From an uncultured Methanoregulaceae archaeon (GTDB lineage: Archaea; Halobacteriota; Methanomicrobia; Methanomicrobiales; Methanospirillaceae), in contig OY970061.1 of NCBI GenBank assembly GCA_963705255.1, forward strand, positions 608,001 through 672,000: a DNA stretch of 64,000 nucleotides, in the 5' to 3' direction. This document shows, piece by piece, positions 1 to 64,000 of the stretch. Every line of letters starts with the position of its first letter. Position 1 is the stretch's first letter. A program made the position numbers and the translations under genes. The notes beneath the pieces were generated by a model that saw only the letters and a list, made by a program, of their open reading frames with translations, ran no database searches and was not told where the DNA came from.

Positions 1-183
1 CCGGCGGAACTCGCCTCACGGGCTTCGGAAGAGACGGGGCTGCCTTTTATCGGGAAGATTGCCGAGGACCCTGGCCTTGCCCGGCAGGTGCTGCTCGGGA
101 AATCGCTGATGGATATGCCGGAGGATTCTCCTGCGTACCGCTCGGTGGCGGGGATTATGGAAAAAGTGCTCGCGGGAGGATAG
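1..183 (+). CDS. 3' end of a probable CooC/AcsF-type Ni-insertion ATPase (partial)
   Basis: Frame 1 reads ...GLPFIGKIAEDPGLARQVLLGKSLMDMPEDSPAYRSVAGIMEKVLAGG*, resembling the CooC C-terminus; it lies upstream of the cdh operon. Confidence 0.6.
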   Translation, partial: PAELASRASEETGLPFIGKIAEDPGLARQVLLGKSLMDMPEDSPAYRSVAGIMEKVLAGG

Positions 184-390
184 GATTTTTCAGGAAAACA
201 CGGAAAGGCTGTCGGGAGAATTGTGGGCCTCTTTTACTTTAGGGGATTTGGTCCTCTCCCACTATCGATCTTTGTCAGGGGCTTGAACACTGCTATGAAA
301 ATTTTGCAAAAATCTTTTCCGGAAATTTTTTCAACATTTTCTGAACATTTTCTCCCAAAAATTGTGTGATACTCCCCTGCTTCGCAGAAC

Positions 391-583
391 CGACCATCGC
401 ATCAGCGAGGTCGATTGGAGAAGTCATCAGGCTTCGACTTGGAATCGTCGCGACGCCTCATCGGATCGCGTTAAGGCAAGATCCTTAGCGAGATCTTATC
501 AAGGTAAGTGCGTAGCGCAAAACACGAGAGGGATCGGTCGTCGCACAAGCGAGGACCGATTTGAGAAGCCATCAGGGCTTCGA
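391..583. repeat. Two degenerate copies of a hairpin + GAGAAG-catcag-CTTCGA unit
   Basis: ~396-437 catcgcatcagcgaggtcgattggagaagtcatcaggcttcga vs ~539-583 cgtcgcacaagcgaggaccgatttgagaagccatcagggcttcga. Confidence 0.7.
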
Positions 584-1340
584 ACGTTTTGCGCGTAAGG
601 CATCGCTCATCCAATCGCACGTTCAACCTCCGGAAAATGCTCACCGCAATAACGGTGCTTCTTCACGTTCACTAGGCCTTCGTCCCAGACCACGGGGCAG
701 CCACCGTTTCTCAAAGGAAACTAGCTCTAAACAGGCCGGTTTTTCTCCAAGGAAAATTGCCTGTTGAACGATCGGGCTCTGAACAAAGGTTATTCCGGAG
801 ACTCACTTCAAAAACTGCCGAAACAGGCCGGTCGAACCGGTTCCGGAAGTGGCGGTCCGGGCCTGCTACGGGCCCGGATGGGTCAAGACGAGGGTGCAGG
901 TCTCTCATACTGGTCATGCATCACATTCCATCGCCAGCAGACCGGGGCAGCGATCAGACCTGGGTTACGCCTATCCAGGGATAGGTCGCCCCGGAAAACA
1001 AACTGCCCGCAAAATGCCCCGTTTTGCAAATGGAACCCGATTTGAAAAACCGATTTTTCGATAGTCGCATTTTTTGGCGAATTACAGCACACCGGTTTTG
1101 CAATATGCCCGTAGGGCCGTCATTTCGCCCGGTTGAGGGTCATTTCAGCCTCTGAAAAACGTCTAATTGTTGCCTTTTGGATGAGCGAGTGCTGCCCGAT
1201 GGGTAGCAGGAGCTTGAAAAGAAGGCTGGAGGTCTTCTTCGAACGATGATTGAAACGATGATTTTCCCTGCTGGAGGCCACCCGGGGAAATGGCAGGGGG
1301 GGATCCGGGGCCCGAAATCTGCAAGGCTACGCTGGGAATT

Positions 1341-1509
1341 CTTCGATATCATGAGTCCCCGTAGGGGCTGAATGAGGAGAAGACGAATCTTCGAGACTGC
1401 TGAATGAAGAGAAGGAACTACAGGCTCGCCGATGGGATCTTCGATATCGTGAAGCCCGAAGGGCTGAACGAGGAGAAGGAGACGCGGGTTTTTCCCGTGT
1501 CTCCTTCGA
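1341..1509 (+). repeat. Cluster of GNA-triloop and GAGAAG...CTTCGA hairpins (degenerate direct repeat)
   Basis: cttcgatatcatgagtcccc-gta-ggggctgaatgaggagaag (1341-1382) vs cttcgatatcgtgaagccc-gaa-gggctgaacgaggagaag (1439-1478); long hairpin at 1473-1509. Confidence 0.75.
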
Positions 1510-1564
1510 TAACCTTATCTGACTCATCCCTCAATGTATAAATGAATCTGCCGTGGTGAATCAT

Positions 1565-3913
1565 TTGAGCAGGAAAGGAGTCAACGTCCAGATAAAGGAA
1601 TTACATTCCGATCTTGCACACTTCCGGGATCTCAGTATCACCATCGGGGCCATTTCCCGCGAGAAATGGGATGAACCGATGGGCCCGACCCCGTTTCCCT
1701 CTCTCACCACCCTCCGCCCCTGGGACCAGATCCTGCTCCGGAAGTACAAACCTTTCTATCTCCCGTTCTGCGACCTCTGCTGTCTCTGCACGTATGGCAA
1801 GTGCGATCTCACCGGCACAAAACGCGGGGCATGCGGTATCTCCATGCCGTCCCAGCAGTCCCGGATGGTCCTGATCGCTGCCTGTATCGGGGCCGCAACC
1901 CACGTAAGCCATTCACGCGACATCCTCTCCCATGTCATCGAATACTACGGCCGGGACTGTCCGATCAACGTCGGCGACACCGGTGTGGAAGTCGAAGCGC
2001 CGGTCGTCCGGCTCGTCTGCGGGATCAAGCCCGAGACACTGGGAGACCTTGAACCGGTGCTGGACTATTGTGAGAACCAGGTCACCCAGCTCCTGGCCGT
2101 CACCCACACCGGGCAGGAAGGAAACAACCTTGACTTTGAATCCAAAGTCCTCCATGCCGGCATGATCGACCAGCTCGGCATGGAAGTAGCCGACATTGCC
2201 CAGATCTCGGCACTCGGTTTCCCGAAGGCTGATCCGGAGGCCGGTCTTGCAGAACTCGGCATGGGGACCGTTGACATCAGAAAACCGGTGATCCTCGTCA
2301 TCGGGCACAATGTTACGCCGGCGACCGGGATCATCGATTACCTGAAAACCAACGACCTCACATCGGACGTGGAAGTGACTGGCATCTGCTGCACTGCGAT
2401 CGACGTAACGCGGTACTCCCCGAAGGCAAAGATCATCGGGCCGATTTCATGGCAGCTGAGATATATCCGGAGCGGAGTTCCTGATGTCATCGTAATTGAC
2501 GAACAGTGTGTCCGAACGGACACGCTGACTGAATCCGCACATATCCGGGCCGCCCTGATAGCAACCAGTGAGAAGAACTGTCTCGGGCTTCCCGACCGCA
2601 CAAACGATCCCCTTGATGACATTGTTGCCGGATTCGTGAGCGGTGAAGTACCGGGCGCTCTCATCCTCGATCCGGAAAAAGTCGGCGAGATTGCCGTGAA
2701 GACTGCCCGCGCAATCGCACCGCGGCGCAAAAAACAGAAGTCCCTTCCCTCACGGGAGACCCTCGTGGAAATGGCAAAGAAATGCACCCTGTGCATGCTC
2801 TGCCGGAGGGCCTGTCCCAACGACCTGCCGGTTGCGCAGGCCGTGAAGGCAGCGGCCGGGGGCAATCTGTCCCTCCTGGACGAGCTGTACGATGACTGTC
2901 TCGGGTGCGGAAGGTGCGAGCCTGCCTGCACGCAGAAGATACCGGTACACAGCCTGATTGTGGCCGCTGCAGAACAGAAGACCCTGAAAGAGACCTACTG
3001 CATCCGGACCGGGAGGGGCGCAATCCGGGATGTCGAGATCCGCAAGGTCGGCGGTCCTATCGTTCTTGGCGAAATTCCCGGCGTGGTTGCATTTGTCGGG
3101 TGCGCCAACTACCCGAAAGGTTCCCGGGAAGTTGCGGAGATGTGCATGGAATTTGCAAAACGCCGGTACATTGTCTGCACATCCGGTTGTTCCGCAATGT
3201 CGGCGGGAATGTACCGGGACGAGGAAGGAAAGACTGCGTACGAGCGGTATTCCGGATCGTTCGAGGCCGGAGGGATCGTAAACGTAGGTTCGTGCGTTGC
3301 AAACGCCCATATTGCCGGTGCGGCTATCAAGATCGCGAGCATCTTTGCAAAACGCCCGCTGCGGGGGAATTACGAAGAGATCGCCGATTACGTCCACAAC
3401 CGTGTCGGGGCTGTCGGGGTTGCCTGGGGTGCCATGTCGCAGAAAGCAGCGGCGATCGCTGCAGGGTTCTGGCGGCTGGGAATTCCCGTGGTCGTCGGGC
3501 CCCATGGTACGAAGTACCGCCGCATGCTCCTTGGGCGTGCAGACAAGGAATCCGACTGGTACGTGTACGATGCCCGCAGCGGGAAGAAGGTGTATGGCGG
3601 CCCGGTACCCGAACACCTCTTCTTTGCCGCCGAGACCAAGGAAGAGGCGATGGTGATGATCGCAAAACTGACCATGCGCCCGAATGACACCAGCAGGGGG
3701 CGGGCCAACAAGCTGGCCAACTACGTCGACCTCCACAAGCGTCTTGTCGGCGGCATCCCGCCTGACATCTCCCTGTATGTCCGGACACCGGCCGATATCC
3801 CCCTTACCATGAAAGATGAGGTACTGAACCACCTCCACCGGCACGGATGGAAGGAGCACACGATCCCCGACCCGACGCTCCTTCCCCGTATGATCCATAC
3901 AAGGAAGGAGTGA
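1565..3913 (+). CDS. cdhA: CO dehydrogenase/acetyl-CoA synthase complex alpha subunit
   Basis: CDLCCLCTYGKC, GICCT, two CxxCxxCxxxC ferredoxin motifs, NVGSCVAN, WGAMSQKA; likely TTG start after GGTGA (the ORF track starts at 1553). Confidence 0.97.
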   Translation: MSRKGVNVQIKELHSDLAHFRDLSITIGAISREKWDEPMGPTPFPSLTTLRPWDQILLRKYKPFYLPFCDLCCLCTYGKCDLTGTKRGACGISMPSQQSRMVLIAACIGAATHVSHSRDILSHVIEYYGRDCPINVGDTGVEVEAPVVRLVCGIKPETLGDLEPVLDYCENQVTQLLAVTHTGQEGNNLDFESKVLHAGMIDQLGMEVADIAQISALGFPKADPEAGLAELGMGTVDIRKPVILVIGHNVTPATGIIDYLKTNDLTSDVEVTGICCTAIDVTRYSPKAKIIGPISWQLRYIRSGVPDVIVIDEQCVRTDTLTESAHIRAALIATSEKNCLGLPDRTNDPLDDIVAGFVSGEVPGALILDPEKVGEIAVKTARAIAPRRKKQKSLPSRETLVEMAKKCTLCMLCRRACPNDLPVAQAVKAAAGGNLSLLDELYDDCLGCGRCEPACTQKIPVHSLIVAAAEQKTLKETYCIRTGRGAIRDVEIRKVGGPIVLGEIPGVVAFVGCANYPKGSREVAEMCMEFAKRRYIVCTSGCSAMSAGMYRDEEGKTAYERYSGSFEAGGIVNVGSCVANAHIAGAAIKIASIFAKRPLRGNYEEIADYVHNRVGAVGVAWGAMSQKAAAIAAGFWRLGIPVVVGPHGTKYRRMLLGRADKESDWYVYDARSGKKVYGGPVPEHLFFAAETKEEAMVMIAKLTMRPNDTSRGRANKLANYVDLHKRLVGGIPPDISLYVRTPADIPLTMKDEVLNHLHRHGWKEHTIPDPTLLPRMIHTRKE

Positions 3914-3918
3914 TAACG

Positions 3919-4459
3919 ATGCCGATGAACGAATCCTGGCAGACCGCAGAGATCCCCGGACCGAAAAAGGCATCTCTTATCATCAAGCCCGATATCGCAG
4001 ACGCAATAATCCGGCGGGCAAAACGCCCAATCATGATTGTGGGTCACGGGATCATCGAATATGAAGTCGAAGGAAAAAAACTGATCGACTGCCTCATCCA
4101 GCTTGCACGAAAAGCGAAGATGCCCGTTGTCGTCACTGCCAGTACGAGCAGGGAGTTCACTGCACGCGGGTTTGAACCTGCGGCCCTCATGCCTGCTGTG
4201 GATATCGCCAACCGTCTCACGGACCCGGAATGGAAAGGGTTTGACGGGAGAGAGACCTATGACCTTGCAATTTTTGTCGGGCTTCCCTATTCCATGGAAT
4301 GGACGATCCTCTCCGGCCTGAAACACTTTGCTCCCGGTGTAAAGACCATGACCCTTGACTGCGTTTACCAGCCGAATGCGAGCTGGTCATTCCCGAACAG
4401 TACCGATAAAAGACTGGGCCGCAAACCTCAAAGGGATCGTGGCAAACCTCGGTGACTGA
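3919..4459 (+). CDS. cdhB: ACDS epsilon subunit (frameshift near 3' end)
   Basis: WQTAEIPGPKKA, AKRPIMIVG, YQPNASWSFPN; a shifted frame continues KDWAANLKGIVANLGD*. Confidence 0.9.
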
Positions 4460-4473
4460 CCGGAGAACAGATC

Positions 4474-5877
4474 ATGTTTGAAACGATCCCTGTTGAAGTG
4501 GGCCTGATCCATGAAGGTGAGCGTGTCAGGAAAAATGATCTGCAGGTCGAGCTGGGCGGCCCGTCGGAGAAAGAGAAGTTCGAGATAGTCCGGGTACGCC
4601 AGCCGGAAGAGATCGAGGATGGCGCAATCCGTATCATCGGCCCCGATATCAGCGGGATGGAAGAAGGTAAGCACTACCCGATCGGTATCCTCGTCGAGAT
4701 TGCCGGAAAAAAGGTCGAGCCCGACCTGGAAGGCGTGGTTGAACGCAGGATCCACGAATACGCTAACTATATCGAAGGGTTCATGCACCTCAACCAGCGG
4801 TACGATATCTGGATCCGGCTCTCGAAAAAATCCTTTAAGAAAGGACTTGACTCGTTCCGGTTTATCGGGCAGGTCATGCACGAGCTCTTCAGGAACGAGC
4901 TTCCCATCATCGAAAAAATCCAGATCAGCTTCATCACGGACCCGGAGAAGATCAAACCACTCTACGAGGAAGCACTCAGGACCTACGAAGCCCGGGACGC
5001 CCGTGCACGGGGACTCTCGGATCAGGACGTGGACACTTTTTATGGGTGTGCACTCTGCCAGTCGTTTGCCCCGACTCATGTCTGTGTCATCACCCCCCAG
5101 CGGTACGCGAACTGCGGGGCAATCAGCTGGTTCGACGGGAGGGCTGCTGCCGGCATTGACCCGAAAGGGCCGATCTATGCCATCGAGAAAGGAGAATGCC
5201 TGGACCCGGACAAAGGCGAATATACCGGTGTCAATGAGAGTGCCCGGAAGCGGTCGATGGGAGAAGTGAGCCGGGTCTATCTCTACTCGGCGTTCGGGTA
5301 CCCGCATACATCCTGCGGGTGTTTTGAAGGGATCGCTTTTTACATCCCGGAGGTCGACGGTTTTGGCATCGTCCTCCGCGGTTTTGGCGCGCTGACGGTA
5401 AACGGGCTTGCGTTCTCAACGATGGCGGACTCCACGGCCGGGGGGCGGCAGGTCGAGGGTTTCCACGGTATTTCGATAGAGTATATGCGATCAAAAAAGT
5501 TCATGCACGCAGACGGCGGTTACGACCGCGTGGTCTGGATGCCGCACGAGACCCGCGAACGGCTCAAAGAGTTCATTCCCGAAGAGGTGTATGAGGCCAT
5601 TGCCACGGAGAAAGATGTGGCAACCGTCGCAGAACTGAAGATATTCCTGCAGGAACACTACCACCCGGTCGTACAACGATGGGTTGCCGTCCCGGAACCT
5701 GAGAGCGGCCCTGTCCGCCAGATGACGGTCATTTCCGGAGCGGACATTCCCCTTGCTTTTGGGGGTTTCAGGATCATCCTCAAGAATGCCAGGATCACCG
5801 CAGAGAGCGTAATCATCCAGCCGATCAGGCCGCCACATCCATCTGGAGGCGAGCACAGTGCCGAAAAAAAATACTAG
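4474..5877 (+). CDS. cdhC: ACDS beta subunit (acetyl-CoA synthase)
   Basis: FYGCALCQSFAPTHVC and PHTSCGCFE A-cluster motifs. Confidence 0.97.
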   Translation: MFETIPVEVGLIHEGERVRKNDLQVELGGPSEKEKFEIVRVRQPEEIEDGAIRIIGPDISGMEEGKHYPIGILVEIAGKKVEPDLEGVVERRIHEYANYIEGFMHLNQRYDIWIRLSKKSFKKGLDSFRFIGQVMHELFRNELPIIEKIQISFITDPEKIKPLYEEALRTYEARDARARGLSDQDVDTFYGCALCQSFAPTHVCVITPQRYANCGAISWFDGRAAAGIDPKGPIYAIEKGECLDPDKGEYTGVNESARKRSMGEVSRVYLYSAFGYPHTSCGCFEGIAFYIPEVDGFGIVLRGFGALTVNGLAFSTMADSTAGGRQVEGFHGISIEYMRSKKFMHADGGYDRVVWMPHETRERLKEFIPEEVYEAIATEKDVATVAELKIFLQEHYHPVVQRWVAVPEPESGPVRQMTVISGADIPLAFGGFRIILKNARITAESVIIQPIRPPHPSGGEHSAEKKY

Positions 5878-7100
5878 ACCTGCCCTTGATGCAGAGCAGC
5901 TCCTCTCACTTGCCCCTCAGCTCCGGGACCTGCTGAAAGGCGTGCACCAGGTGGAACTGAAAAATTTTTCCATGGAGATCGGGAATCTTGAACTCTTCAT
6001 CCCCACCTCAGGTTCTGCATCCCCGGCCAACCCTGTCCATTCCGCCGGCCTGTACATACCGGAAAAACCCTCCGAACTGATCCGGGAGTCCTATGCTCCG
6101 GCCAGTTTTGAATTTCCCGGCAGGATCCGTGAAGTGACCCTCGGCGCGACACGGTCCGGGGGAGGGACCCGGGGGAGGTCAATTACCATCGGGGGCGCAC
6201 AGGCACCTGCCTATTCTGATCGTATCCACCTCCCGGTCCACCCGCCGGCGATCTCACTTGATGTCTTTGACATGAACGTCTCCCTGCCAAAGGTCCTGCG
6301 CGAGAATATCTCGGAGGTCATGGAAGACCCCGCTGAATGGGCACGTATGAACGTCAAAAAGTACGGCGCCGACGTGGTGACTATTCACCTCATGAGTACG
6401 GATCCCCTGTTCCGCGATGCGTCCCCCCGTTCGGCAGCAAAGACCGTAGAGGAAGTGCTCCAGGCCGTTGACGTGCCTGTCATCGTCGGGGGTTGCGGTG
6501 ACCCGAAAAAAGATGCCGAGGTCTTTCTGGAGGTAGCCGAGATGGCTGCTGGCGAGCGCCTCCTCCTCAACTCGGTGACGCTCGACATGGTGGAATCAAA
6601 GACACTGGACCGGGTCGCCACTGCAGCACGGGACCACGGGCATCTCCTCCTTGCATTCACGGGCCTTGACCTGAACAATGCCAAGGAACTCAACCGCCGC
6701 CTGTACGAGTATATTCCTCCCGAACAGATTGTCATGGACCTGACGACCGTGGCGCTGGGCTACGGCCTCGAGTACTCGTTCACTATTCATGAACGTGCGC
6801 GGTATGCCGCACTTATGGGAGATCCGGAACTGGCACACCCGGTGATATCGGCCGCGACCAATGCATGGGCGGCACGGGAAGCCTGGATGAAGATGCCGCC
6901 GGTGTACGGGCCACGGGAACTGAGGGGGCCGGTCTGGGAAACGATCAATGCCCTGACCCTGCTGCTGGCGGGGACCGACCTGTTCATGATGATGCACCCC
7001 GCAGCAGTACCTGACGCTCAGGGATGTTATTCACCGTCTGGGCACTCCGGGGACCGGGCATGCCGAACAGATAGCCGGCTGGGCCGGGGTGCGGCTATGA
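5858..7100 (+). CDS. cdhD: ACDS delta subunit (corrinoid Fe-S protein small subunit); a frameshift near 7010 joins it to cdhE in the ORF track
   Basis: VMEDPAEWA, ALGYGLEYSF, NAWAAREAW, MMMHPAAV; the alternative frame ends ...AGWAGVRL* in an ATGA overlap with cdhE. Confidence 0.9.
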
Positions 7101-8545
7101 ACGTGACGGATCCTGCCCCGGAAAAGAAGCAGAGAAAGGGGATCAAGGAGATCAGCCCGATCGACGTCTACAAGCTCCTCCCGAAGACAAACTGCGGGGA
7201 ATGCGGGGAAGCCAACTGCATGGCTTTTGCCACCCGGCTTGTCAATGGCGAACTGGTCCTTTCCGACTGCCCGCCCCTCCATTCTGTTGAGTATCACGGA
7301 GCTTTCGGGGAACTTTCCCGTCTCCTGGCACCCCCGGTCCGTACGGTCACCCTGGGTACCGGTGACCATAGCATCAGCATCGGCGGGAAATATGTGCTCC
7401 AGCGCCATGATTTCACGTACCATAACCCTGCACCGATCGCCATCGATGTCAACGATCTCATGCCCGAGGCGGAACTTCTCGAGCGGGTCAGGCAGATCGA
7501 AGCCTTCTCCTACAATTACATAGGCAGGACACTGGTACTGAACGCGATTGCCATCCGTTCGGTCTCCGGGGATCCCGTGATTTTCGGGGCTGCAGTAAAA
7601 AAAGTGGCTGCAGCCAGTCACCTGCCGTTCATACTCTGCTCGCTCGATCCAGCAGTGATGGAGGCCGGCCTCCGGGAGGCTGGGAACCGCCGCCCGCTCA
7701 TCTACGCTGCCACTGACAAGAACTGGAAACTGATGGCTGATCTGGCCCTTGCTCACCATGCTCCCCTTGCGGTCTTTGCGCCGGGCGATCTCGGTCTCCT
7801 CCGGACGCTCGCCAGAACCCTCATGGCCTGTGGTGTCCATGACCTGGTCCTTGACCCCGGAACATTTACCGAAGACGGGCTGTCCGACACCATCGCGAAT
7901 TTTACTACAATCAGGGCAGCTGCCACAAAAAATTTTGATGAGCTGTTCGGCTTTCCGATCCTTGGCGTCCCGCTCACGGTCTGGACCGGTGAAGAGCTCT
8001 CAGAGGACGTGCTCAAATGGCGTGAGGCGACCACCGCGTCCATGCTCCTCTCCCGGTATGCGGACCTGCTCATCATGCACAGCCTTGACGGATGGGTCCT
8101 CCTCCCCCAGCTGATCTGGCGTTTCAGCCTTTACACGGATCCGCGGAAGCCGGTCTCGGTCGAAGCGGGTGTGAAGACGTTCGGCAGGCCCGACCATACC
8201 TCGCCGGTCCTGATCACGACGAATTATGCGCTTACGTATTTCACCGTCGAATCCGATATCAAGGCCGCCAACCTGGACTGTTATCTCATTGTCGCGGATA
8301 CCGGGGGGCTCAGTGTCGAGAGTGCCGTTGCAGGGAGGTATTTTACTGCAGATTCAGTTGCGAATGCCCTGAAGACCAACAATATAGCGGCTCTCGTCAG
8401 CCACAATACTCTCATCATACCCGGTCTTGCAGCCCGGCTGAGCGGGGAGACGGAAGAATCGACCGGCTGGAGGATCCTTGTCGGCCCCAAGGACTCGTCG
8501 GGGATCTCCCAGTTCCTCAGGGACCACTGGCCTCCTGCAGAGTAG
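7097..8545 (+). CDS. cdhE: ACDS gamma subunit (corrinoid Fe-S protein large subunit)
   Basis: LPKTNCGECGEANCMAFA, YTDPRKPVSVE, TTNYALTYFTVESDI. Confidence 0.93.
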   Translation: MNVTDPAPEKKQRKGIKEISPIDVYKLLPKTNCGECGEANCMAFATRLVNGELVLSDCPPLHSVEYHGAFGELSRLLAPPVRTVTLGTGDHSISIGGKYVLQRHDFTYHNPAPIAIDVNDLMPEAELLERVRQIEAFSYNYIGRTLVLNAIAIRSVSGDPVIFGAAVKKVAAASHLPFILCSLDPAVMEAGLREAGNRRPLIYAATDKNWKLMADLALAHHAPLAVFAPGDLGLLRTLARTLMACGVHDLVLDPGTFTEDGLSDTIANFTTIRAAATKNFDELFGFPILGVPLTVWTGEELSEDVLKWREATTASMLLSRYADLLIMHSLDGWVLLPQLIWRFSLYTDPRKPVSVEAGVKTFGRPDHTSPVLITTNYALTYFTVESDIKAANLDCYLIVADTGGLSVESAVAGRYFTADSVANALKTNNIAALVSHNTLIIPGLAARLSGETEESTGWRILVGPKDSSGISQFLRDHWPPAE

Positions 8546-8638
8546 CATGAATTTTCGCGGCAAAAAAGATGTCTGCATCCGGTTCTGCATCCGGGACCTG
8601 CCAGTACGGCTGACGACAATTCAAGGTAGGGCAATCCA

Positions 8639-10471
8639 ATGGCTGAAATGTACAGCGTCGTTTTCCACCCCATGAGCAGGATCGTATCTGTACCTTCTGG
8701 TTCGACGGTCCTCGAAGCCATCCGGAACGCTGAGATCCAGTTCGAGAGTATCTGCGGCGGAAAAGGAGAATGCAACAAGTGCAAAGTCATTCTCCTGCAG
8801 GGCTCGTGTGATGCCGGCTCGCCGGAGAGTACCCGGGGCCTGACTGCTGATGAGATAGCCCGGAACTACTGTCGGGCCTGCCGGACTCATATCACCGGAA
8901 ACTGCGAGTTTATCATCCCGGTGGAGAGCCGGATCGATGCCCCAAAAATACTCCAGAACCATGCTGAAATCACTACCTGGCTGTATCCCCTGGTAACAAA
9001 ACACCGGCTTGCAGCGCCCGGGAATCATCACCATCCGCACGGGTCCCGTTCCCTGAGACTCGAAGGGTATTCCGGCACCCGCCCTCACATGACCCGCGAA
9101 CAGATGGGCCGGCTGACAGCTGCGGAGGGCGGGCAGGTCACGGTTGCTGTCACCCGGTCGAACGGGTACCCGGAAGTTCTGGGAATCGAGGCGGGAGACA
9201 CCACGGCGGAGAACTACGGTATCGCCCTTGACCTCGGGACTACAACCGTTGTCGGGGTGCTTGTTGATTGTGCGACCGGCCGGACCTGCAGCCAGTCCTC
9301 TTCCCTGAACCGGCAGATAACCTATGGCGAGGAGTTGCTCACCCGGATCGCTTTTGCAAAAAAACCCGGCGGGAAAGAAAAACTCCGGGCTGCGGCCGTT
9401 GAGAGTATCAATGCGGTCATCGGACAGCTCCTCTCGTCTGCCGGGGTGAGCGGGGATTCTGTCTATGACCTCTGCATAGGCAGCAATACGGTTATGAACT
9501 ACCTCCTCTTTGGCCGCGATACAGCAATCCTTGAGATTGCGAATGCTGATATCTCCCGGAGCCCTTTCCTTGCCCGGGCACTGGACCTCGGGCTTCTGGC
9601 AAATCCACAGGCGTACGTGTACTGTCTTCCCAACGTCAGCCGGTTTGTTGGTGGGGATGCCGTGGGAGATGTCATTGCATCGGGGATGCACCTGTCTCCC
9701 GACCTCTCCCTGATGATAGACCTTGGTACAAACGGCGAAGTTGTTCTCGGCAACAGGGACTGGCTGGCTTCTGTCTCATGTGCATCCGGGCCTGCTTTCG
9801 AAGGTGCCGGGATCACCTCGGGTATGCGGGCGATGCGGGGAGCGATCGATCATATCGGTATCGACCCCGCCACGTTCAGGGTTTCATGGACAACGATCGG
9901 AAATGAGCTTCCCCGGGGGATCTGCGGATCGGGAATCATCGATGCAGCGGCTGCGATGGTGACCTCGGGTATCGTGGATTTCACCGGCAGGCTTGTGGAG
10001 GAGAAGCCCGGCGTGCGCCGTGGTAAGGAAGGTCTCGAATATGTCCTCGTTCCCTGCAAGGAGACAGCAACCGGCCGGGATATCGTGATCACGAAGCAGG
10101 ACCTTGCCTACCTTATGGACTCAAAAGCCGCAGCATGCGGGGCGATCGGGGTCCTCTTAAAAAAATACCGTATCCCGGTGAGGAGTGTCCGCAATGTGTA
10201 CTTTGCCGGGGCATTCGGTGCCTATGCAGATCGGAACAAAATTGTGACCTTCGGGATAACCCCCGATTTTCCCGATGCAGAATTCCATGCTATCGGGAAT
10301 GGTTCCCTCACGGGTGCACGTGCCGCCCTGCTGTCCGGGAAAAAACGGCAGGAAGCGCTGGATGTTGCGAAGAAGATGGTGTATATCGACCTGCTGGTAG
10401 ATGCGGATTTTATTGAGGAGTACGCGTCGGCGATCTACATTCCCGGCAAACCTGAATATTTCCCCCGCTGA
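8639..10471 (+). CDS. ASKHA-type reductive activator of corrinoid protein (RACo/AcsV-like) with N-terminal 2Fe-2S domain
   Basis: CGGKGECNKC...C, DLGTTTV, DLGTNGE, SCASGPAFEG, GICGSG. Confidence 0.9.
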   Translation: MAEMYSVVFHPMSRIVSVPSGSTVLEAIRNAEIQFESICGGKGECNKCKVILLQGSCDAGSPESTRGLTADEIARNYCRACRTHITGNCEFIIPVESRIDAPKILQNHAEITTWLYPLVTKHRLAAPGNHHHPHGSRSLRLEGYSGTRPHMTREQMGRLTAAEGGQVTVAVTRSNGYPEVLGIEAGDTTAENYGIALDLGTTTVVGVLVDCATGRTCSQSSSLNRQITYGEELLTRIAFAKKPGGKEKLRAAAVESINAVIGQLLSSAGVSGDSVYDLCIGSNTVMNYLLFGRDTAILEIANADISRSPFLARALDLGLLANPQAYVYCLPNVSRFVGGDAVGDVIASGMHLSPDLSLMIDLGTNGEVVLGNRDWLASVSCASGPAFEGAGITSGMRAMRGAIDHIGIDPATFRVSWTTIGNELPRGICGSGIIDAAAAMVTSGIVDFTGRLVEEKPGVRRGKEGLEYVLVPCKETATGRDIVITKQDLAYLMDSKAAACGAIGVLLKKYRIPVRSVRNVYFAGAFGAYADRNKIVTFGITPDFPDAEFHAIGNGSLTGARAALLSGKKRQEALDVAKKMVYIDLLVDADFIEEYASAIYIPGKPEYFPR

Positions 10472-10474
10472 CGG

Positions 10475-11269
10475 TCATTCGAAGAGCCAGCCGAGGTCCT
10501 GGAGCTCTTCAATCTGCGCCAGCTGGACGTTGATATCGGTTTTTTTTGGGATCTCCAGTTTTGCGACGATCTTGTTCGAACCGCCGAACGTATCCAGCGT
10601 CGCGCCAAGTGCGACGAGGTCCCGGAGGATCTCGTCCTGCATCTTCTTGCGGTCCCCTTCACCCAGTTCCGCTATGAGCTGGAACTCCGGGTGCTTCAGT
10701 ATTGCCGTCTTGTTGATGGTGACACCGCTCTGGCTTTCGAGAACGGCATCGAATGCCTCGCGCCGCATCCGCTGGTTCTCCATGTGGGAATAGATGCGGT
10801 ACCCGCTCTTGATGGAAGAGGCGATCCCGTCGATCTTGGCAACCACCTGCTCCACGATGGTCTCGAGCTGGTCCTGCGCATGGGTGATGGCAAAGAGGTG
10901 GAAGTCATCAGAATAGATCCACTGGATCTCGGTCGTGTTCGCCTTTTTGTAGATCTGTTCGGTGATGACCCAGTCCCCCCGCCGGAGCGTGAATCCCAGG
11001 ATCCGGAAGTCCGGTCTCTTTTTTGCGATCACCGGGTAGACCTGGAGATCATCGATAAGGGATACGTCCTTGTCCCGGTATTCGGTGATGACGAGTTCGA
11101 AATAGCGGGTCTTCGGGTGAGGGGGTTTGAGGATAACACTGTCGTAGACCTTCCATTTGTATTCCATGACCTGCTGGATCTCGATCTCATCCCCGATATC
11201 GATAAGGTACGAATGGCCGATGTGGTGCCTGTCAACCTTCTGGTATTCATGATACACCACATCGGTCAT
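10475..11269 (-). CDS. Hypothetical protein (264 aa)
   Basis: Long ORF with host-like codon usage, convergent with the RACo gene; no motif recognised. Confidence 0.75.
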   Translation of the reverse strand: MTDVVYHEYQKVDRHHIGHSYLIDIGDEIEIQQVMEYKWKVYDSVILKPPHPKTRYFELVITEYRDKDVSLIDDLQVYPVIAKKRPDFRILGFTLRRGDWVITEQIYKKANTTEIQWIYSDDFHLFAITHAQDQLETIVEQVVAKIDGIASSIKSGYRIYSHMENQRMRREAFDAVLESQSGVTINKTAILKHPEFQLIAELGEGDRKKMQDEILRDLVALGATLDTFGGSNKIVAKLEIPKKTDINVQLAQIEELQDLGWLFE

Positions 11270-11488
11270 GGTTTGTCTCGTTAATGCCGTTGTTTCGTAA
11301 AAGAACCCTTACGATGATAAATTTCCGGGAAAATTTTCCTTTTCGGGGCTGCTTAATATCTATTTTCCTATGCATTTATTTGAGTTCTTTGGTCTGGGTT
11401 TCCTCCGTTGGCCGGTATACATGAACCGGAGTGGCTGGCAGGTCCTGCCACACCTGTCAACAAGCTGTATCTTGTCGAACGTGTAAAC

Positions 11489-12130
11489 ATGACCGGCAGG
11501 ACTGATACACCGGTGCGGGTAAATCCTGATGCATGGGATGAAGAATATTCCCGGAAGGGCAGGCTCTTCGGTGGTTCCGTGTTCACCTTACCGGGTCTCC
11601 TCCCGGGCCCGGACGTGCTCGAACTCGGGTGTGGCGATGGCAAGACCCTGTCGGCAATGGTACACCGGGACTGGAAGGTGACCACCCTGGATTTCTCCTC
11701 CCGGGCAGTTATCCTTGCCCGGGATGCAGCCGGATTATCGGCGAATCTTGTCATCGGGGACGCCCGGGCTATACCGTTCAGGCAGGAAACTTTCGACGCA
11801 GTCTTTGCTCACCACATCTTCGGGCATATGACACAGGGTGACCGTGAAGAGATCTCCCGTGAGATATTCCGGGTCATCAGGCCGGGCGGGAATCTCTATT
11901 TCAACGATTTCTCTACCCGTGATTTCAGGTTCGGGAAAGGGTCTGAAACGGAACCAGGAACGTTCAGGCGGGGAAACGGGATCTGCACGCATTATTTTAC
12001 CCCCGGTGAAGTGGCCGATCTTTTTTCCCGCCTTGCCGTGGTTTCCGTGGACTACCGGGACTGGAATATGCGTATACGCGGAAGGGACCTGCCGCGATCC
12101 GAGGTGACCGCAGTGTTCAGGAAATGTTGA
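11489..12130 (+). CDS. Class I SAM-dependent methyltransferase
   Basis: VLELGCGDGK, LDFS, GDARAIPF, RVIRPGG. Confidence 0.9.
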   Translation: MTGRTDTPVRVNPDAWDEEYSRKGRLFGGSVFTLPGLLPGPDVLELGCGDGKTLSAMVHRDWKVTTLDFSSRAVILARDAAGLSANLVIGDARAIPFRQETFDAVFAHHIFGHMTQGDREEISREIFRVIRPGGNLYFNDFSTRDFRFGKGSETEPGTFRRGNGICTHYFTPGEVADLFSRLAVVSVDYRDWNMRIRGRDLPRSEVTAVFRKC

Positions 12131-12140
12131 ATCCCGAAGT

Positions 12141-12426
12141 GGTGAGGCAGGAGAAGAACCCGAAGAATTCAAATAAATTCTTCGGCTCTTCGAGGTTCTG
12201 ATGAACCTCTCAGAACCCGGAGGGTTCTTCGATTTGCCGAATCCCGCTGGACCCTATGAATGATTCGGAGGAAGTATCGGAGGGGGTTCTTCGATTTGCC
12301 GGATATGACATGCCGAACCCCGGAGGGGTGAGGCAGGAGAAGAACTCGAAGAATTCAAATAAATTCTTCGGCTCTTCGAGGTTCTGATGAACCTCTCAGA
12401 ACCCGGAGGGTTCTTCGACTTGCCGA
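12141..12426. repeat. Two 100-bp direct repeats with nested hairpins, between convergent genes
   Basis: 12141-12240 and 12327-12426 differ at two positions; internal stems cgaagaatt/aattcttcg, gaggttc/gaacctc, aaccc-gga-gggtt. Confidence 0.95.
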
Positions 12427-12429
12427 GGT

Positions 12430-13283
12430 TCAGCGCCGGGATACCCACAGGACTGCGTAACAGGCAAGTGCGATCAGCGCAGGCGCCCCGTCAAAACCGG
12501 GGAGGGGCTTGTCCCGGTTGCCGTGGTCCCGGGAATATACCCGAGAATGGCCGATACCTGAACAGTGCTTCCCGTTGTGACATTGACGGTCTTTGTGACC
12601 GGTTCGAAATTATCTTTCTCGAACCGGAATGTATGTATGCCGGCCGGGATCTCGTCCAGTGTTACAGGTGCATCACCGGCATAGGAGCCATCGATATACA
12701 CCTGAACTCCAGAGGGTGACGATATCACCCTGGCTGCACCGGTAGCTGGCTGTGTGGATGCAGAAGCTGACTTTGTGGGATCAATTACCGTGTGTGAAAA
12801 AGCAGGAAGTACATCAACGTTGGTGAATTGCCGGGAGTATGCGTCCGGGAAGGTCACGGTTATCGTTGCCGGAGAAAAGTCGGCGGTGATGACACTGCTG
12901 AGTGCGGAATTCTTCAGGGCGATCTCTGCCTTTTTGAAGTTCATAGAAGCGGTTCGGTATTCAGTGCCTTCAGGAACATCGCCGGTATCCGCAAATTTGC
13001 TCATGAGGAGAGTTGCAGCTGACTTGTTCATGGAAATGATCTCCGGGGGATCGGAACTGCTGGCAAGTCCTTTTTTGAGCTCGTCCTCCAGAATGGATTG
13101 CGGGATGGCATTCTCAAGGATCCCTTCCAGTGTGAAGCGGAAGATTGCCGTGGCATCCCCGTTTTTGCTGATGGTGATATCAAGCGAGTTGGCAGTGAAT
13201 GCCTGGACCGGCACAGCAACAAGAAATGCAGTACAGAATACGAGCAGCATGGAACAAAGGAAACGTGATGATTCCAGCGACAA
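12430..13283 (-). CDS. Secreted PEGA-domain protein with a PGF-CTERM-like tail (frameshift near 3' end)
   Basis: Signal peptide; SSPSGVQVYIDG PEGA motif; the shifted frame gives LPGFDGAPALIALACYAVLWVSRR*. Confidence 0.8.
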
Positions 13284-13466
13284 GATTATTTCCCCTCCAG
13301 GGAACCGGGAATTGTGATGTGCTGTATCCGGATCTGTTGTTATTGCCGATAAGCGTATCATCGCCAGCCCGGAACCCCGTATTTGATCATCTGACCCGGT
13401 TTTACCGGCACGATTTTTTCGCTCAAATTAATTAATATAGCGTTGAGGCGCATATTTCAGGCAGCT

Positions 13467-14135
13467 ATGATAGACTCGGTCATAACAGTCCTTCTTCATC
13501 TTGACCAGAACATGACAGCAGTTGTCCATCAATATGGCATGTGGACGTATCTTATCCTGTTCTGTATCATCTTCTTCGAAACCGGGTTTGTCATCATGCC
13601 ATTTCTTCCCGGGGACTCGATCCTGTTCGTCGCGGGGGCTGCAGCGGCGAGTGGTATTCTCGATCTCCAGTGGCTGCTTATTGCAATTGTCCTTGGTGCG
13701 GTCCTCGGCGACACCGTGAACTACTGGATCGGAAATTACATCGGGCTCCACGTATTTCTCGAACGGTTTCCGAACCTTGTCAAAAAGGAATACGTTGACC
13801 GGACCTATGGGTTTTACGAAAAATATGGCGGTACTACCATCTTTGTGGCACGGTTCTTTCCCATTATCCGGACGTTTGCACCCTTTCTTGCCGGGGTCGG
13901 GTCCATGCAGTACCGGCGGTTCCTGTTCTATAATGTCCTGGGAGGAACCGCATGGACCTTCTTTGTCGTCCTTGCCGGTTATTACCTTGGTGCATTTTCC
14001 ATCGTGAAAGAAAACATGAGCCTCCTGATTATCGCCGTTCTTGTCGTGACGGCTGCTACGGTTATTGTTATTGCAGCCGGTATCCTGTCTGCCTACCTCC
14101 GGAAGGAACCTGCAGTTCAGGAAAAAAACCAATAA
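13467..14135 (+). CDS. DedA family membrane protein
   Basis: ETGFVIMPFLPGDS, GDTVNYWIG, ARFFPIIRTFAPFLAG. Confidence 0.95.
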   Translation: MIDSVITVLLHLDQNMTAVVHQYGMWTYLILFCIIFFETGFVIMPFLPGDSILFVAGAAAASGILDLQWLLIAIVLGAVLGDTVNYWIGNYIGLHVFLERFPNLVKKEYVDRTYGFYEKYGGTTIFVARFFPIIRTFAPFLAGVGSMQYRRFLFYNVLGGTAWTFFVVLAGYYLGAFSIVKENMSLLIIAVLVVTAATVIVIAAGILSAYLRKEPAVQEKNQ

Positions 14136-14426
14136 CCTTTCGGGCGTTGCTGAAAAAATAATTACGTTTGTTTTTCCACTCTCTGCCGGCTACTATTTTT
14201 GAAATGTTTCCAGGACGGTTTCCGATCGCGGCTGCAAGGCTGATGGAACGTAACGAAAGGAATTTTCCAGGCATTATTCTTTGTCCGCCCGGTAAATGAA
14301 AGAAATACCGGCTCTGGAGAACCGGACATGAACCTATAACGTTCACCCCGGAACCATGAAAATCGTAGTATTCAGATATCACGGAAGGTGGTTCCTCTTT
14401 TACGATTGCGATGAACGCCGCCGCAC

Positions 14427-14987
14427 TCGAAGAACTCTGACGAGTTCTTCTCATCCTAGAGGTCCTGATGAACCTCTTCGGTGTCGAAGATTGATCTCTT
14501 CTCCACAGTTATCGGCATCCCCAACGGGGAGCCAGCCGTGACCTGATGAACAGGGCCGGCTGGAGAAAATTCTCCGCAAGAGAATTTTCAACTCGCCCCG
14601 CAGTGGGATCAACCTCCTTGCCCCGCCGTGCCTCATCTTTCACAAGATTCGGCAAGAGGAAGTTTTTCAGACTTCCTCTGCTTCATCCGTACAGGATGAA
14701 GCAAGTCGAAGAATCCTTGCGGATTCTTCTCCAGTCGATCCTCGCTGACGCGACGATTGACTCCCCGGAGAGGCCCTGAGGCGGGGAGTTCTCGTACCTG
14801 AACGATTTTTAGGGGAATTCCCAGTATATCCTGTGATTCGCTTACATTTTTCAACGATTATGAGGGTGATCCCCTCACTCATGTCGAAGAACTCTGATGA
14901 GTTCTTCTCCAGCCTGCTCTTCCCTTCGGGAATCTGAAAGGTTCATCAGAACCTTGAAGGAGAGAAGAATTCGAAAGAATTCTTCGA
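14427..14987. repeat. Cluster of TCGAAG...CTTCTC / GAGAAG...CTTCGA hairpins in both orientations
   Basis: Hairpins at 14427-14452, 14706-14731, 14884-14909, 14918-14934 and 14962-14987. Confidence 0.8.
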
Positions 14988-15050
14988 ACAGCAGTCTTCC
15001 CCAAGAGCGTCTGGAATGAAAGCCATGATTTCTGCAGAGCCAAAAAAAGA

Positions 15051-16130
15051 TTACTTTTTCTGCCGGACAACAAGTCCCCTGTTATCAATTTTTGTGGCTA
15101 TCGCGATCTTCAGTCCCAGAGGGCGGATGAGTTTTTCAACTGCCTTTTTGTCCAGTTCTGTCACGACAGCGATGGAAGGGCCGACAGAGCTCATGCCGAT
15201 AAATTCCAGTCTCTTTTCCCGGAGCATGCTCATGTAATGATAGATCTCAAAACTGTGGTGCTCCACTTCCGCACGTTTTGACCCACGGAACTCAATCTCC
15301 CAGATCACGTCCCCCGCCTTCCTGACGTCCCCCTTCTCGAGTGCAGGGATGAGGTCCATCAGGAAAAGGTACGCCTTGAGTTCCCGGTCACGGTAATCGA
15401 GGGTTCTGGCCTTGTTCATCAGGAGGTCGAATTCCTGGGTGCCGGCAGAGGAGATGTCCGTGGGCGGGATGATGATATAGACATTCATGCCTTCAGCAAA
15501 GGGGTGGTGGTACACAAGCGAGAGCTCGTCTCCCATCACGGCCATTCCGCCATACGTGCTCACCGCGGGGCCGACCCCGGTCTCAAATCCGAATGCGATG
15601 TTACCATCGGCAGTCTCCTCGACATAGTTGTGCCCGATAAGGTGCCGCAACTGGGTGTTTGCCAGGGGCGAGCCGACCGCCTGGTTCAGGGCAGTTGCGA
15701 CCGCAATCATGACCGTGCTGGTGGAGCCAAGGCCCACATGCTTGTGCTCGTGGTCCGTGACTTTGATCCGGAACCCGCCCTTGTACCCCGTGACGTTCCG
15801 GAAGACCTCGACAAAGTTCCGGACGATGGGTGCCCGGTTGTAATCGATGACCACCTCCTTTTTCGTGCAGCTGACTTCGGCGGAACAGTAGCACTGTATC
15901 GCAAACCCGATTCCTCCCCCTCCCGGGTGGTCCGGAGCAAACCGGTTCATGTCCAGCACGGTCAGGTGGATTCGCGCCGGGGCCTGCACAAAAACCGTTC
16001 CTTTCACGGGTTTCAGTAAGTATCTTTTTTTCTCGAGGCCAAGCGTCTTGAGGTTTTTCCCCGGTAGGAACCCCTTGAACTCGTATTCCACGAGGTCGAG
16101 GTCGCCGCCGCGTATCTTCATGATCGCCAT
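15051..16130 (-). CDS. GHMP-kinase superfamily protein, beta-RFAP synthase-like
   Basis: PARIHLTVLD, GGGGIGF, HVGLGSTS, GMSSVGP. Confidence 0.8.
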   Translation of the reverse strand: MAIMKIRGGDLDLVEYEFKGFLPGKNLKTLGLEKKRYLLKPVKGTVFVQAPARIHLTVLDMNRFAPDHPGGGGIGFAIQCYCSAEVSCTKKEVVIDYNRAPIVRNFVEVFRNVTGYKGGFRIKVTDHEHKHVGLGSTSTVMIAVATALNQAVGSPLANTQLRHLIGHNYVEETADGNIAFGFETGVGPAVSTYGGMAVMGDELSLVYHHPFAEGMNVYIIIPPTDISSAGTQEFDLLMNKARTLDYRDRELKAYLFLMDLIPALEKGDVRKAGDVIWEIEFRGSKRAEVEHHSFEIYHYMSMLREKRLEFIGMSSVGPSIAVVTELDKKAVEKLIRPLGLKIAIATKIDNRGLVVRQKK

Positions 16131-16509
16131 AGAGAACAAATCCTGTTAGGTGCGGTCACGGGAAAATGGTTCCGTTTAATCCGTGCGCAGCGTTCCGGAA
16201 CCAGATGCACCTCCGCGGTCTCCATGACCAGAATACTTCCGCGAACCTCATTCTCATTTTTTATCTTCCTTTAGATGTGAATCAGGCAGGATTCAATTCT
16301 TTACGGATCTGAAAATCGGCAAAAAATAAAAATGCCCGTAGTCTTATTTCTGCCTGTCATGAACAAAGAAAATGTCTGGCTTCATTTGTAAAATGACCTG
16401 GTAAAATTGACTATCGATGCACGCGGGCATTGAAATATCGCAATCCTCCGAAAAGCCAGCCAAACCATGCCTTGTAAATTTTATATATCTTGACGGGAGA
16501 TGGATGACT

Positions 16510-25579: not shown

Positions 25580-25713
25580 TACGGTACCTCACTTCCCCGT
25601 TGCAGAGATTAATCCATGGAGTCTGGGGAAACCAAAGCAGATAATTCTATCAGAAATTATTTTTATTCCTTTATTATCTTAGGTAACGATGCTGGTACAT
25701 GATATAGTATGAG

Positions 25714-26559: not shown

Positions 26560-26703
26560 GGAATTTTCTTTCATTAATGACCACACGTTCCTGTCAACAA
26601 TTAAAAGTGAGAGGGCCCGGATCCGGGCGCTTTTTCATCACTTGCTCACCTCTGGCATTTTTGTTTCATGTTTATCTCTATCAAGGGGGTCAATCTTCTG
26701 CCA

Positions 26704-28284: not shown

Positions 28285-28323
28285 CAATCAAATCCTCCTT
28301 AACCAAATCATGAACGTGTACAT

Positions 28324-28360
28324 GGAAGGATATTTCCTTCTATATATTATAAATATTCCT
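28324..28360 (-). promoter_or_regulatory. TATA box + perfect NrpR-type operator GGAA-N6-TTCC upstream of the permease
   Basis: Minus strand reads TTTATAATATATAGAA-GGAAATATCCTTCC; operator at 28324-28337. Confidence 0.8.
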
Positions 28361-29044: not shown

Positions 29045-29045
29045 A

Positions 29046-63506: not shown

Positions 63507-64000
<494 letters not shown>

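Follow-up and report, generated by a model that had tools for sequence, protein, structure and literature searches.

Interspersed palindromic repeats are well studied in bacteria and barely characterised in archaea. The closest described systems are the repetitive extragenic palindromes (REPs) of Escherichia coli and Pseudomonas, together with the bacterial interspersed mosaic elements (BIMEs) into which they are assembled and the REP-associated tyrosine transposases (RAYTs) by which they are mobilised and whose genes, in the same genome, usually have REPs on their flanks. RAYT-type REPs are reported (PMC3733652) to have palindromes with a conserved GTAG or CGTC tetranucleotide at their 5' foot, and a phylogenomic survey (PMC6006769) describes the Y1 proteins of Archaea as belonging to the IS200-type subclass only (IS, insertion sequence). 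A 2025 survey (PMC12306157) applies the name 'REPs' to intergenic palindromes of a generic kind in six archaeal genomes, with no Methanomicrobiales among them and without the motif considered below, and a Methanomicrobiales genome paper (PMC2686161) mentions only counts of short palindromic repeats that are clustered and regularly interspaced (CRISPR) and of transposable elements. Full-text literature searches, which did not cover the supplement of one census of transposable elements of the miniature inverted-repeat type (MITEs), returned no description of Methanoregula repeats. The present analysis concerns a family of short hairpins clamped by GA dinucleotides, apparently undescribed, in a window of 64,000 nt (the whole stretch analysed: positions 608,001 to 672,000 of contig OY970061.1, assembly GCA_963705255.1, from an uncultured Methanoregulaceae archaeon). 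A first-pass annotation of this window had proposed an undescribed archaeal REP/BIME-like element with signatures of single-stranded DNA (ssDNA), in which structure and not sequence is conserved; the dispersed, extragenic, mosaic palindromes and the lack of an earlier description hold, and the ssDNA and structure-only parts of the proposal are not supported in the form given.

Two modules had been recognised in the window, module A (a hairpin of the form GA-stem-triloop-stem-GA) and module B (GAGAAG, a variable stem-loop, CTTCGA). Within the window there are 11 matches to GAGAAG N0-30 CTTCGA, where 100 dinucleotide-preserving shuffles give 0.40 on average and 2 at most. Ten of these matches are intergenic hairpins; the eleventh (7497-7509) falls within cdhD, has a spacer of 1 nt and is not a hairpin. 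Allowing spacers of up to 45 nt raised the count to 13, of which 12 fall in the part called intergenic, 17% of the window, and every true module B copy in the window is intergenic. Module B starts at 418, 563, 1377, 1409, 1473, 12151, 12337 and 14962 on the plus strand and lies at 14427, 14484, 14706 and 14884 on the minus strand, with degenerate copies reading GAAAAG at 58182-58206 (minus) and 1216-1242 (plus). The first-pass coordinates proved correct for module A, by sequence reading and with a finder of GA-clamped hairpins, and for module B, by pattern search, including the copy at 58182, which is itself degenerate. The order of module A before module B is also exact, with 5 nt between them at 1451/1473 and 12315/12337 and 8 nt at 14934/14909.

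The range of the family outside the window was examined with the pattern TCGAAGAAYNCN{3,6}GNRTTCTTYTC, scanned across 185,579 species genomes (596 Gb); all loci discussed below (numbered L) were ascertained on it, its matches being referred to as seeds. The pattern has 5 matches in the window against 0.00 expected, and about 35 chance matches were computed for the 596 Gb. The scan yielded at least 113 loci, the window's own genome not being among those analysed, and among those listed 90 are labelled by their own records as Methanoregula, Methanoregulaceae or Methanomicrobiales metagenome-assembled genomes (MAGs) and 23 otherwise. Non-overlapping DNA of 990 kb from Methanoregulaceae loci and 281 kb from other loci was analysed. 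Away from the seeds, TCGAAG N4-45 CTTCTC was found 112 times in the Methanoregulaceae DNA and twice in the other DNA, both times in a single locus (L003). With a covariance model built from 13 ungapped copies of the two-hairpin composite described below, 1.33 Mb of DNA yielded 202 matches at E<=0.01, some few being counted twice through the overlapping loci L030 and L031; 7 of the 202 lie outside Methanoregulaceae, 4 in L003 and 3 at seeds. In the window the model has 7 matches, all within the three hairpin clusters. At more than 3 kb from any seed, 42 clamped perfect hairpins were counted in 608 kb, which extrapolates to about 170 per 2.5 Mb, taken as a lower bound because perfect stems alone were counted. 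The clamped-hairpin family is abundant and spread across Methanoregula-type methanogens.

Read on the strand that carries the GA...GA flanks, the unit of the family is a composite of two hairpins of about 57 nt. Module B consists of GA, GAAG continued by a variable stem, a loop, the returning stem ended by CTTC, and GA. The other hairpin (hairpin 2) is composed of a 3-bp outer helix, GA, an inner stem of 5-8 bp around a loop that is mostly AUCA or GNA, GA (the two GA forming a tandem G·A clamp) and the second side of the outer helix, and module B follows it after 1-2 nt. Such a second GA-clamped hairpin stands directly 5' of 78 of 153 module B copies, with a spacing of 4-5 nt in 70 of the 78. 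The three positions of the outer helix, which had not been used in the selection, are paired in 65, 70 and 67 of 77 composites against means of 29-34 and maxima of 41-45 in the shuffle control, a fourth position is paired in just 28 of 77, and 16 distinct fully paired outer helices occur among the composites. Since these three non-selected nucleotides pair far above shuffles, the outer 3-bp helix is part of the unit. A base pair left free by the seed pattern is Watson-Crick in 99 of 114 Methanoregulaceae seeds versus 11 of 23 other seeds, and seven fully complementary types of inner stem are present (CGC, CTC, TCC, CCC, TTC, TGC and CAC). In a model-fitted alignment of 141 distinct rows, which, unlike the free-pair and outer-helix tests, leans towards the model, 95.7% of the cells are paired against 75.3% after shuffling (none of 500 shuffles reaches the observed value), the cells altered on both sides number 499 against 123 in shuffles and at most 70 when the partners are slid, and 16 of the 19 model pairs show double changes. 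In the same alignment the clamp columns hold G or A in 128-138 rows and the loop consensus of both hairpins is R-U-(C/A)-A. By these results the helices covary strongly, with the GA clamps and the ends of the loops fixed. The compensatory stems proposed at first pass are borne out by the free-pair, outer-helix and model-alignment tests. The wording 'structure, not sequence' overstated the case: variation is confined to the inner and outer helices, and sequence is conserved in the GA clamps, in the GAAG/CTTC base of the stem and in the loop, R-U-(C/A)-A.

The GA/GA clamps noted at first pass hold up as a general and strand-specific feature of intergenic hairpins in these loci. GA/GA or TC/TC flanks are carried by 136 of 822 perfect intergenic hairpins (stem >=6 bp), the next flank combination by 13; with module B left aside they are carried by 57 of 724, and in coding DNA GA/GA flanks occur on 15 of 1252 perfect hairpins. 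On the clamp strand the loop begins with a purine and ends with A in 90 of the 136 and is closed by a C-G pair in 115, the commonest loops being AUCA (25) and GAA (15), followed by GUCA, GCA and GCCA (5 each). The c-GNA-g triloops taken at first pass as a signature of the family are thus present as a minority, in 23 of the 136 clamped hairpins against 25 for AUCA alone. Folding predictions for 78 composites make the GA strand more stable than the complementary one in 70 when RNA parameters are used (by 3.35 kcal/mol on average) and in 72 with DNA parameters (by 1.27 kcal/mol on average); of 5 composites examined in the window, 4 favour the GA strand with either parameter set, at z-scores of -3.2 to -7.6. 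G·U combinations on this strand outnumber A·C by 67 to 35. All stabilising non-Watson-Crick features lie on the GA (purine) strand, and this asymmetry of flanks, loops and folding places one strand under constraint. Nothing in it singles out ssDNA over RNA, as the GA strand is favoured under both parameter sets, and the constrained strand may be either DNA or RNA.

The genomic location of the copies was assessed with crude gene calls, made by a simple codon-bias caller that marked 75% of the DNA as coding. Gene calls are lacking for 31 of 154 well-paired module B hairpins, whose loci are short, and of the 123 assessed, 115 (about 93%) are intergenic. Copies sit in intergenic regions whose length is 2-5 times that of copy-free ones: among convergent regions 23 of 138 are occupied (median length 625 nt with copies, 232 nt without), among tandem regions 37 of 356 (639 and 138 nt) and among divergent regions 12 of 150 (454 and 222 nt). 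Where the genes on either side are co-directional, 22 copies have the GA strand as the sense strand and 29 as the antisense strand (p=0.40). Of the 21 loci with at least 3 copies, 14 show mixed orientations, neighbours within 150 nt have the same orientation in 31 cases and the opposite one in 12, and a strict replication-strand bias was not found, both orientations occurring within single 20-kb loci. At one gene, an orthologous gene of 167 aa, a composite is found in the leader in four loci (L014 9297-10028, L028 9331-10028, L005 2216-2857 and L007 4437-5019); in L014 and L028, and not in L005 or L007, the gene is bracketed by inverted composites.

These data bear on the main rival explanation, according to which the hairpins are cis-acting RNA modules of untranslated regions (UTRs), serving as a protein platform or in stability or termination, with the G·A clamp bound by a protein such as L7Ae. 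Among the classic motifs of RNA are tandem sheared G·A pairs within a helix and R...A loops with a closing C-G pair, although the window copies have neither the 3-nt bulge nor the flanking C-helix of a kink-turn. The outer helix of precisely 3 bp covaries, the RNA-fold z-scores run from -3.2 to -7.6 and G·U is preferred to A·C, yet the share of G·U, just 2.7% (67 cells in 2443), is smaller than a functional RNA would lead one to expect, and no relevant Rfam match was obtained over window positions 1-16000 even at E<=5. The composite in the leader of the 167-aa gene and the most frequent occupation of convergent regions would suit such a role, whereas copies are also found in divergent promoter regions, in both orientations inside one cluster, in sense and antisense about alike between co-directional genes, and present or absent at orthologous sites. 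This explanation is considered unlikely.

Beyond the single composite, the units are chained, duplicated and rearranged. In the window, tandem arrays repeat every 186 and 98 nt. Whole units are also arrayed head to tail at L062 13745-13880 (3 copies, 55-nt period) and L034 1-218 (at least 5 copies, 44-nt period). Inverted doublets exist, for example at L028 10001-10059 and 10295-10354. The window hairpins are embedded in longer dispersed composites of 320-480 nt. Window positions 989-1303 match two copies in L035, 5.5 kb apart, with 78% and 75% identity, and the genes next to these copies are unrelated to cdh; window positions 14356-14814 are 84% identical to L038 over 470 nt, with parts matching L080 (89%) and L037 (92%). 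Orthologues of the window's flanking genes were not found in the loci that match the long composites, and the identity of the composites is as high as that of orthologous genes of other genome pairs (69-93%). At two orthologous intergenic sites one species is filled and the other empty, L061 carrying about 375 nt of chained hairpins where L037 has none and L065 about 420 nt where L058 has none. The family is dispersed, extragenic, clustered, tandem-duplicating, mosaic-forming, indifferent to orientation and variably present at orthologous sites.

Present-or-absent blocks of 375-420 nt, together with the 49-nt, 80% inverted repeat that brackets 463 nt in the window and a possible direct duplication of about 11 nt flanking one insert (L014/L005, a single case judged by eye), would be compatible with MITEs left by a cut-and-paste (DDE) insertion sequence, of which the hairpins would be the terminal or internal inverted repeats. 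The ends and target duplications are inconsistent, however: consistent terminal inverted repeats, a feature of MITEs, were not found across copies beyond this one 49-nt pair in the window, and a target-site duplication was not seen at either filled site (L061/L037, L065/L058). Moreover, the units, 20-57 nt long, can be solitary or tandem and follow one another without a set order, with neighbours in the same orientation 31 times and in the opposite one 12 times, the inner stems differ and yet stay complementary, which is not expected from MITE decay, and no transposase-like multi-copy gene is present among 835 predicted proteins. A MITE origin is therefore very unlikely. The same long composites could also be multi-copy genes for structured non-coding RNAs, of which the short hairpins would be fragments. 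They are 75-92% identical between species at non-syntenic positions, in the range of the orthologous genes (69-93%), and in both the window and L038 a plus-strand T5 run marks the end of the 460-nt element; but the strand of this T-run is the TC strand and not the better-folding GA strand, no conserved promoter-like block was seen by eye 5' of the aligned start, copies are truncated variously (about 200 nt in L080, about 130 nt in L037) and no Rfam match was obtained, which makes this explanation quite improbable as well.

Taken together, the constraint on one strand, the fixed clamp and foot with complementary helices, the indifference to orientation, the clustering, tandem expansion, mosaicism and non-syntenic conservation, and the presence or absence at orthologous sites suggest a REP/BIME-like family of interspersed repeats propagated through a folded single strand, which we regard as moderately probable. 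The GA strand would fold in a single-stranded intermediate, either ssDNA or RNA, through which copies are made or selected; the clamped base of the hairpin would be read by a protein acting in trans; copies would land in either orientation wherever intergenic DNA tolerates them; and effects on adjacent transcripts, such as 3' hairpins or UTR structure, would be by-products. From the same pattern we infer true transposition of the family. Several results weigh against this proposal. The first-pass annotation had suggested looking for a linked TnpA(Y1)/RAYT or nuclease, and a scan for the HUH-Y1 motif of these mobilising enzymes found none in about 1.05 Mb of Methanoregulaceae DNA and the window, a sample that represents a fraction of each genome so that a single-copy gene elsewhere is possible; the one match obtained lies in an unrelated bacterial locus. 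No multi-copy protein family was found near the copies among the 835 predicted proteins. The exact junction, a target-site rule and a terminal signature were not definable, the flanks being too diverged at both filled sites, and the length differences at these orthologous sites could be deletions or local expansions and not transposition. The composite kept in the leader of the 167-aa gene hints at a local function. Lastly, RNA shows tandem G·A pairs and GNRA-like loops just as typically as DNA does.

Similar hairpins also occur outside the Archaea. The locus L003 is from a genuine bacterium (MurG, FtsW and a Mur ligase are encoded, at 38% GC; the MAG is labelled just 'bacterium') and holds similar hairpins of its own, as does L085 of the same MAG. 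A hairpin foot reading TC-GAAGAA...TTCTTC-TC was observed near other clamped hairpins at L003 130-345, 2039-2083, 6613-6669 and 7102-7123 and at L085 290-330, an inverted doublet of about 215 nt being included. These bacterial hairpins could represent the same recognition system in another domain, or convergence. It is tentatively proposed, as a possibility to be held with some reserve, that Methanoregulaceae and at least one unrelated low-GC bacterium, in which the same hairpin GA-GAAGAA...TTCTTC-GA is found, host a REP-like system in which a hairpin clamped by tandem G·A pairs is read in single-stranded form by a non-RAYT enzyme. If this is true, archaea would have a counterpart of the REP/RAYT partnership that is mechanistically distinct, the first of its kind, with a nuclease, transposase or binding protein of a new, hairpin-specific type as the partner.

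A number of other identities were considered for the hairpins and their possible partners and rejected. With Rfam 15, the window gives only an RNase P RNA and one tRNA at the gathering score, and over window positions 1-16000 nothing relevant appeared at E<=5, IS605-derived, snoRNA and sRNA families included; window positions 14330-15010 have no blastn match among plasmid and phage records. For box C/D RNAs (RUGAUGA/CUGA boxes, 12-nt guides, about 50-60 nt) the guide spacing is missing and Rfam is silent, as it is for hammerhead ribozymes; readings based on CUGAUGA, considered by eye, were set aside because this motif is merely the complement of the AUCA loop and its closing pairs. A kink-turn was rejected since the clamp of hairpin 2 sits between regular helices, one of them the covarying 3-bp helix, with no 3-nt bulge. 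A CRISPR array does not fit the irregular spacing in the window or the tandem arrays elsewhere, which repeat the 'spacer' too. Intrinsic terminators (20 against 15.7 expected) are uninformative, and a T-run stands beside just 15 of 78 composites. An open reading frame (ORF) starting at 14356 is not conserved in L038, and a leader or riboswitch of cdh was dismissed as the 320-nt element 5' of cdhA recurs beside unrelated genes. As for partner proteins, the recurrent neighbour genes belong to ordinary ABC, kinase and reductase families, and the 167-aa protein has no Pfam or NCBIfam match and look-alikes that are all 'hypothetical', the bracketing by composites being absent in L005 and L007.

The window is archaeal, with an archaeal RNase P RNA at 49561-49899 (Rfam search of the whole window), and starts with an operon for CO dehydrogenase/acetyl-CoA synthase recognised by Pfam. 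Hairpin cluster 1 occupies the 1.37-kb gap 5' of cdhA, cluster 2 the convergent gap 12131-12473 between the methyltransferase and PEGA-domain genes and cluster 3 the convergent gap 14136-15050, and the extra module B copy at 58182 sits between two plus-strand genes (Table). A third module, GAGGTYC-ATCA-GRACCTC, which the first-pass annotation lacks, is present at 12190, 12376, 14459 and 14936. Module A is nested in a further helix of 3-4 bp outside the GA clamp (tcgt/acga at 1447-1471, gcc/ggc at 12312-12334), and a nested TCGC-ATCA-GCGA hairpin lies 5' of module B at 384, 530 and, on the minus strand, 14770. The arrangement of the composite at 384-437 recurs as a third copy on the minus strand at 14704-14770, and the copy at 530-583 differs from the first by a compensatory swap of the outer stem, CGGTC/GACCG for CGACC/GGTCG. 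The tandem duplications span 186 bp (12121/12307) and 98 bp (1340/1438), and the arms of the 49-nt inverted repeat lie at 14427-14475 and 14939-14987. The helix outside the clamp of module A, the tandem duplications and the embedding of the hairpins in longer dispersed composites had likewise been overlooked at first pass. A module TCCCCG-GAGAGGCCCTGAGG-CGGGGA recurs beside module B, at 14737-14800 of the window and in L037, L064, L076 and L098.

Table. Hairpin features and neighbouring genes of the window (H2, hairpin 2; CM, covariance model; MFE, minimum free energy).
Feature	Position	Strand	Score or source
Composite: nested hairpin (CGACC/GGTCG around TCGC-ATCA-GCGA), then module B GA-GAAGTC-ATCA-GGCTTC-GA at 418-437	384-437	+	
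Second copy of the preceding composite; module B at 563-583	530-583	+	
Dispersed non-coding composite of about 320 nt, including the degenerate module B 1216-1242	989-1310	.	
Tandem duplication of about 98 nt; module B at 1377-1394 and 1409-1444; full A+B composite 1446-1511	1340-1511	+	CM 22.5 bits, E=0.0068; MFE -41.3, z -7.4
Module A GA-agccc-GAA-gggct-GA	1451-1467	+	
Module B with 14-bp stem, GA-gaaggagacgcggg-TTTTT-cccgtgtctccttc-GA	1473-1509	+	
cdhA	1553-3913	+	Pfam
cdhB	3847-4455	+	Pfam
cdhC	4474-5877	+	Pfam
Fused cdhD-type gene	5858-8545	+	Pfam
RACo	8639-10471	+	Pfam
Methyltransferase	11408-12130	+	Pfam
186-bp tandem duplication forming cluster 2; copies 93% alike over 120 nt	12121-12426	.	
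Module B around nested GAAGAATTC...AAATTCTTC hairpin; duplicate at 12337-12379	12151-12193	+	
Two-hairpin composite, H2 at 12190-12211 GA-gaggttc-ATCA-gaacctc-GA	12158-12214	-	CM 57.5 bits
Module A GA-acccc-GGA-ggggt-GA, 5 nt upstream of module B at 12337	12315-12331	+	
Duplicate of the composite at 12158-12214	12344-12400	-	CM 62.3 bits; z -5.3
PEGA-domain protein	12474-13361	-	Pfam
VTT/DedA protein	13443-14135	+	Pfam
Dispersed composite of about 460 nt, chained hairpins; T5 run at plus-strand end	14356-14814	.	
Composite: H2 GAGGTTC-ATCA-GGACCTC (one G·U) and module B 14427-14452	14425-14482	-	CM 57.2 bits
Short module B GA-gaaga-GATCAA-tcttc-GA	14484-14503	-	
Module B 14706-14731 (loop GCAA) preceded by nested TCGC/GCGA hairpin	14704-14761	-	CM 27.5 bits
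Module A GA-ttccc-GAA-gggaa-GA (14918-14934), then module B 14884-14909 (loop AUCA)	14882-14939	-	
Best composite of the window: tct-GA-aaggttc-ATCA-gaacctt-GA-agg, then GA-gaagaattc-GAAA-gaattcttc-GA	14933-14989	+	CM 76.4 bits; z -4.3
GHMP kinase	15051-16139	-	Pfam
Isolated degenerate copy of module B, GAAAAG...CTTCGA, whose mismatches read as G·U pairs on the plus strand	58182-58206	-	

Some further observations were made on the genes of the window. The ORF at 5858-8545 (plus strand) encodes 895 aa with two CdhD-family stretches plus an Fe-S domain, and its product resembles a fusion of two subunits, gamma and delta, of the acetyl-CoA synthase complex. A purH-type gene (AICARFT/IMPCHase) at 61200-62685 on the minus strand is split into two ORFs, 61564-62685 spanning profile positions 1-241 and 61200-61541 spanning positions 265-311, which could be due to a frameshift, a stop codon or a sequencing error. 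The ORF at 63474-63998 (minus), just downstream of grpE, matches Pfam NAD-GH (PF10712); we take this entry to be usually a shadow frame opposite dnaK, and the real gene at these positions is presumably dnaK on the plus strand. Positions 28000-30000 form a low-GC island (0.34-0.41 versus about 0.55 elsewhere) with genes for a P-II protein and a GNAT acetyltransferase, and at 24605-26586 (minus) a gene for a Ser/Thr protein kinase adjoins one for a PP2C phosphatase.

The family represents an abundant, lineage-wide archaeal case of interspersed palindromic repeats for which the structural grammar (clamp, covarying helices, constrained loops) is explicit and a covariance model works, and it makes testable both what spreads such repeats where RAYTs are not known and whether the folded strand is DNA or RNA. 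The elements inflate intergenic regions 2-5-fold, will mislead predictors of RNA genes and terminators, probably break MAG assemblies, and provide a marker for Methanoregulaceae, key methane producers of peatlands.

When compared with known systems, the family shares with the kink-turn and K-loop bound by archaeal L7Ae the tandem sheared G·A pairs (5'-GA/3'-AG) beside a regular helix, but the clamp of hairpin 2 lies between regular helices without a 3-nt bulge and module B is without a C-helix. Integron attC sites, which are recognised as folded single strands, likewise combine conserved outer motifs with a variable complementary centre; in the family, by contrast, several much shorter units share an intergenic region beside housekeeping genes, without an integrase or cassette array. 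The subterminal hairpins of the IS200/IS605 family, which also occurs in Archaea, and of its derivatives without genes, the palindrome-associated transposable elements (PATEs), which Y1 transposases read as ssDNA, resemble the family in their one-strand hairpin, whose function is predicted in the present case, and in an orientation independent of host genes. They differ in that no tnpA or tnpB is present in the sampled loci, a distinct left and right end pair was not definable among the copies, and copy number and modular chaining are far beyond those of IS ends. The REPINs of Pseudomonas (inverted REP doublets) have their parallel in the inverted doublets described above and are conserved in sequence across species at the level of the element, as here; most units of the family are single or in direct pairs and not symmetric doublets, however, and the inner stems diversify in a compensatory way with no single master sequence. 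The closest resemblance in these features is to REP/BIME elements, likewise short imperfect palindromes (20-40 nt, against 17-43 nt for the hairpins of the family) that are extragenic, lineage-specific, found in both orientations and in mosaic clusters with linker modules, present in hundreds of copies per genome (by extrapolation, probably also in the family) and provided with a conserved tag at the foot of the hairpin below a variable sequence. From these the family is set apart by the failure to find a RAYT in about 1 Mb of its DNA, by neighbours that are mostly co-oriented (31 versus 12) and not alternating, by its archaeal host, by a tag made of the GA...GA clamp and the GAAG/CTTC stem base in place of GTAG or CGTC, and by a second clamped hairpin with a 3-bp outer helix held at a fixed distance of 4-5 nt.

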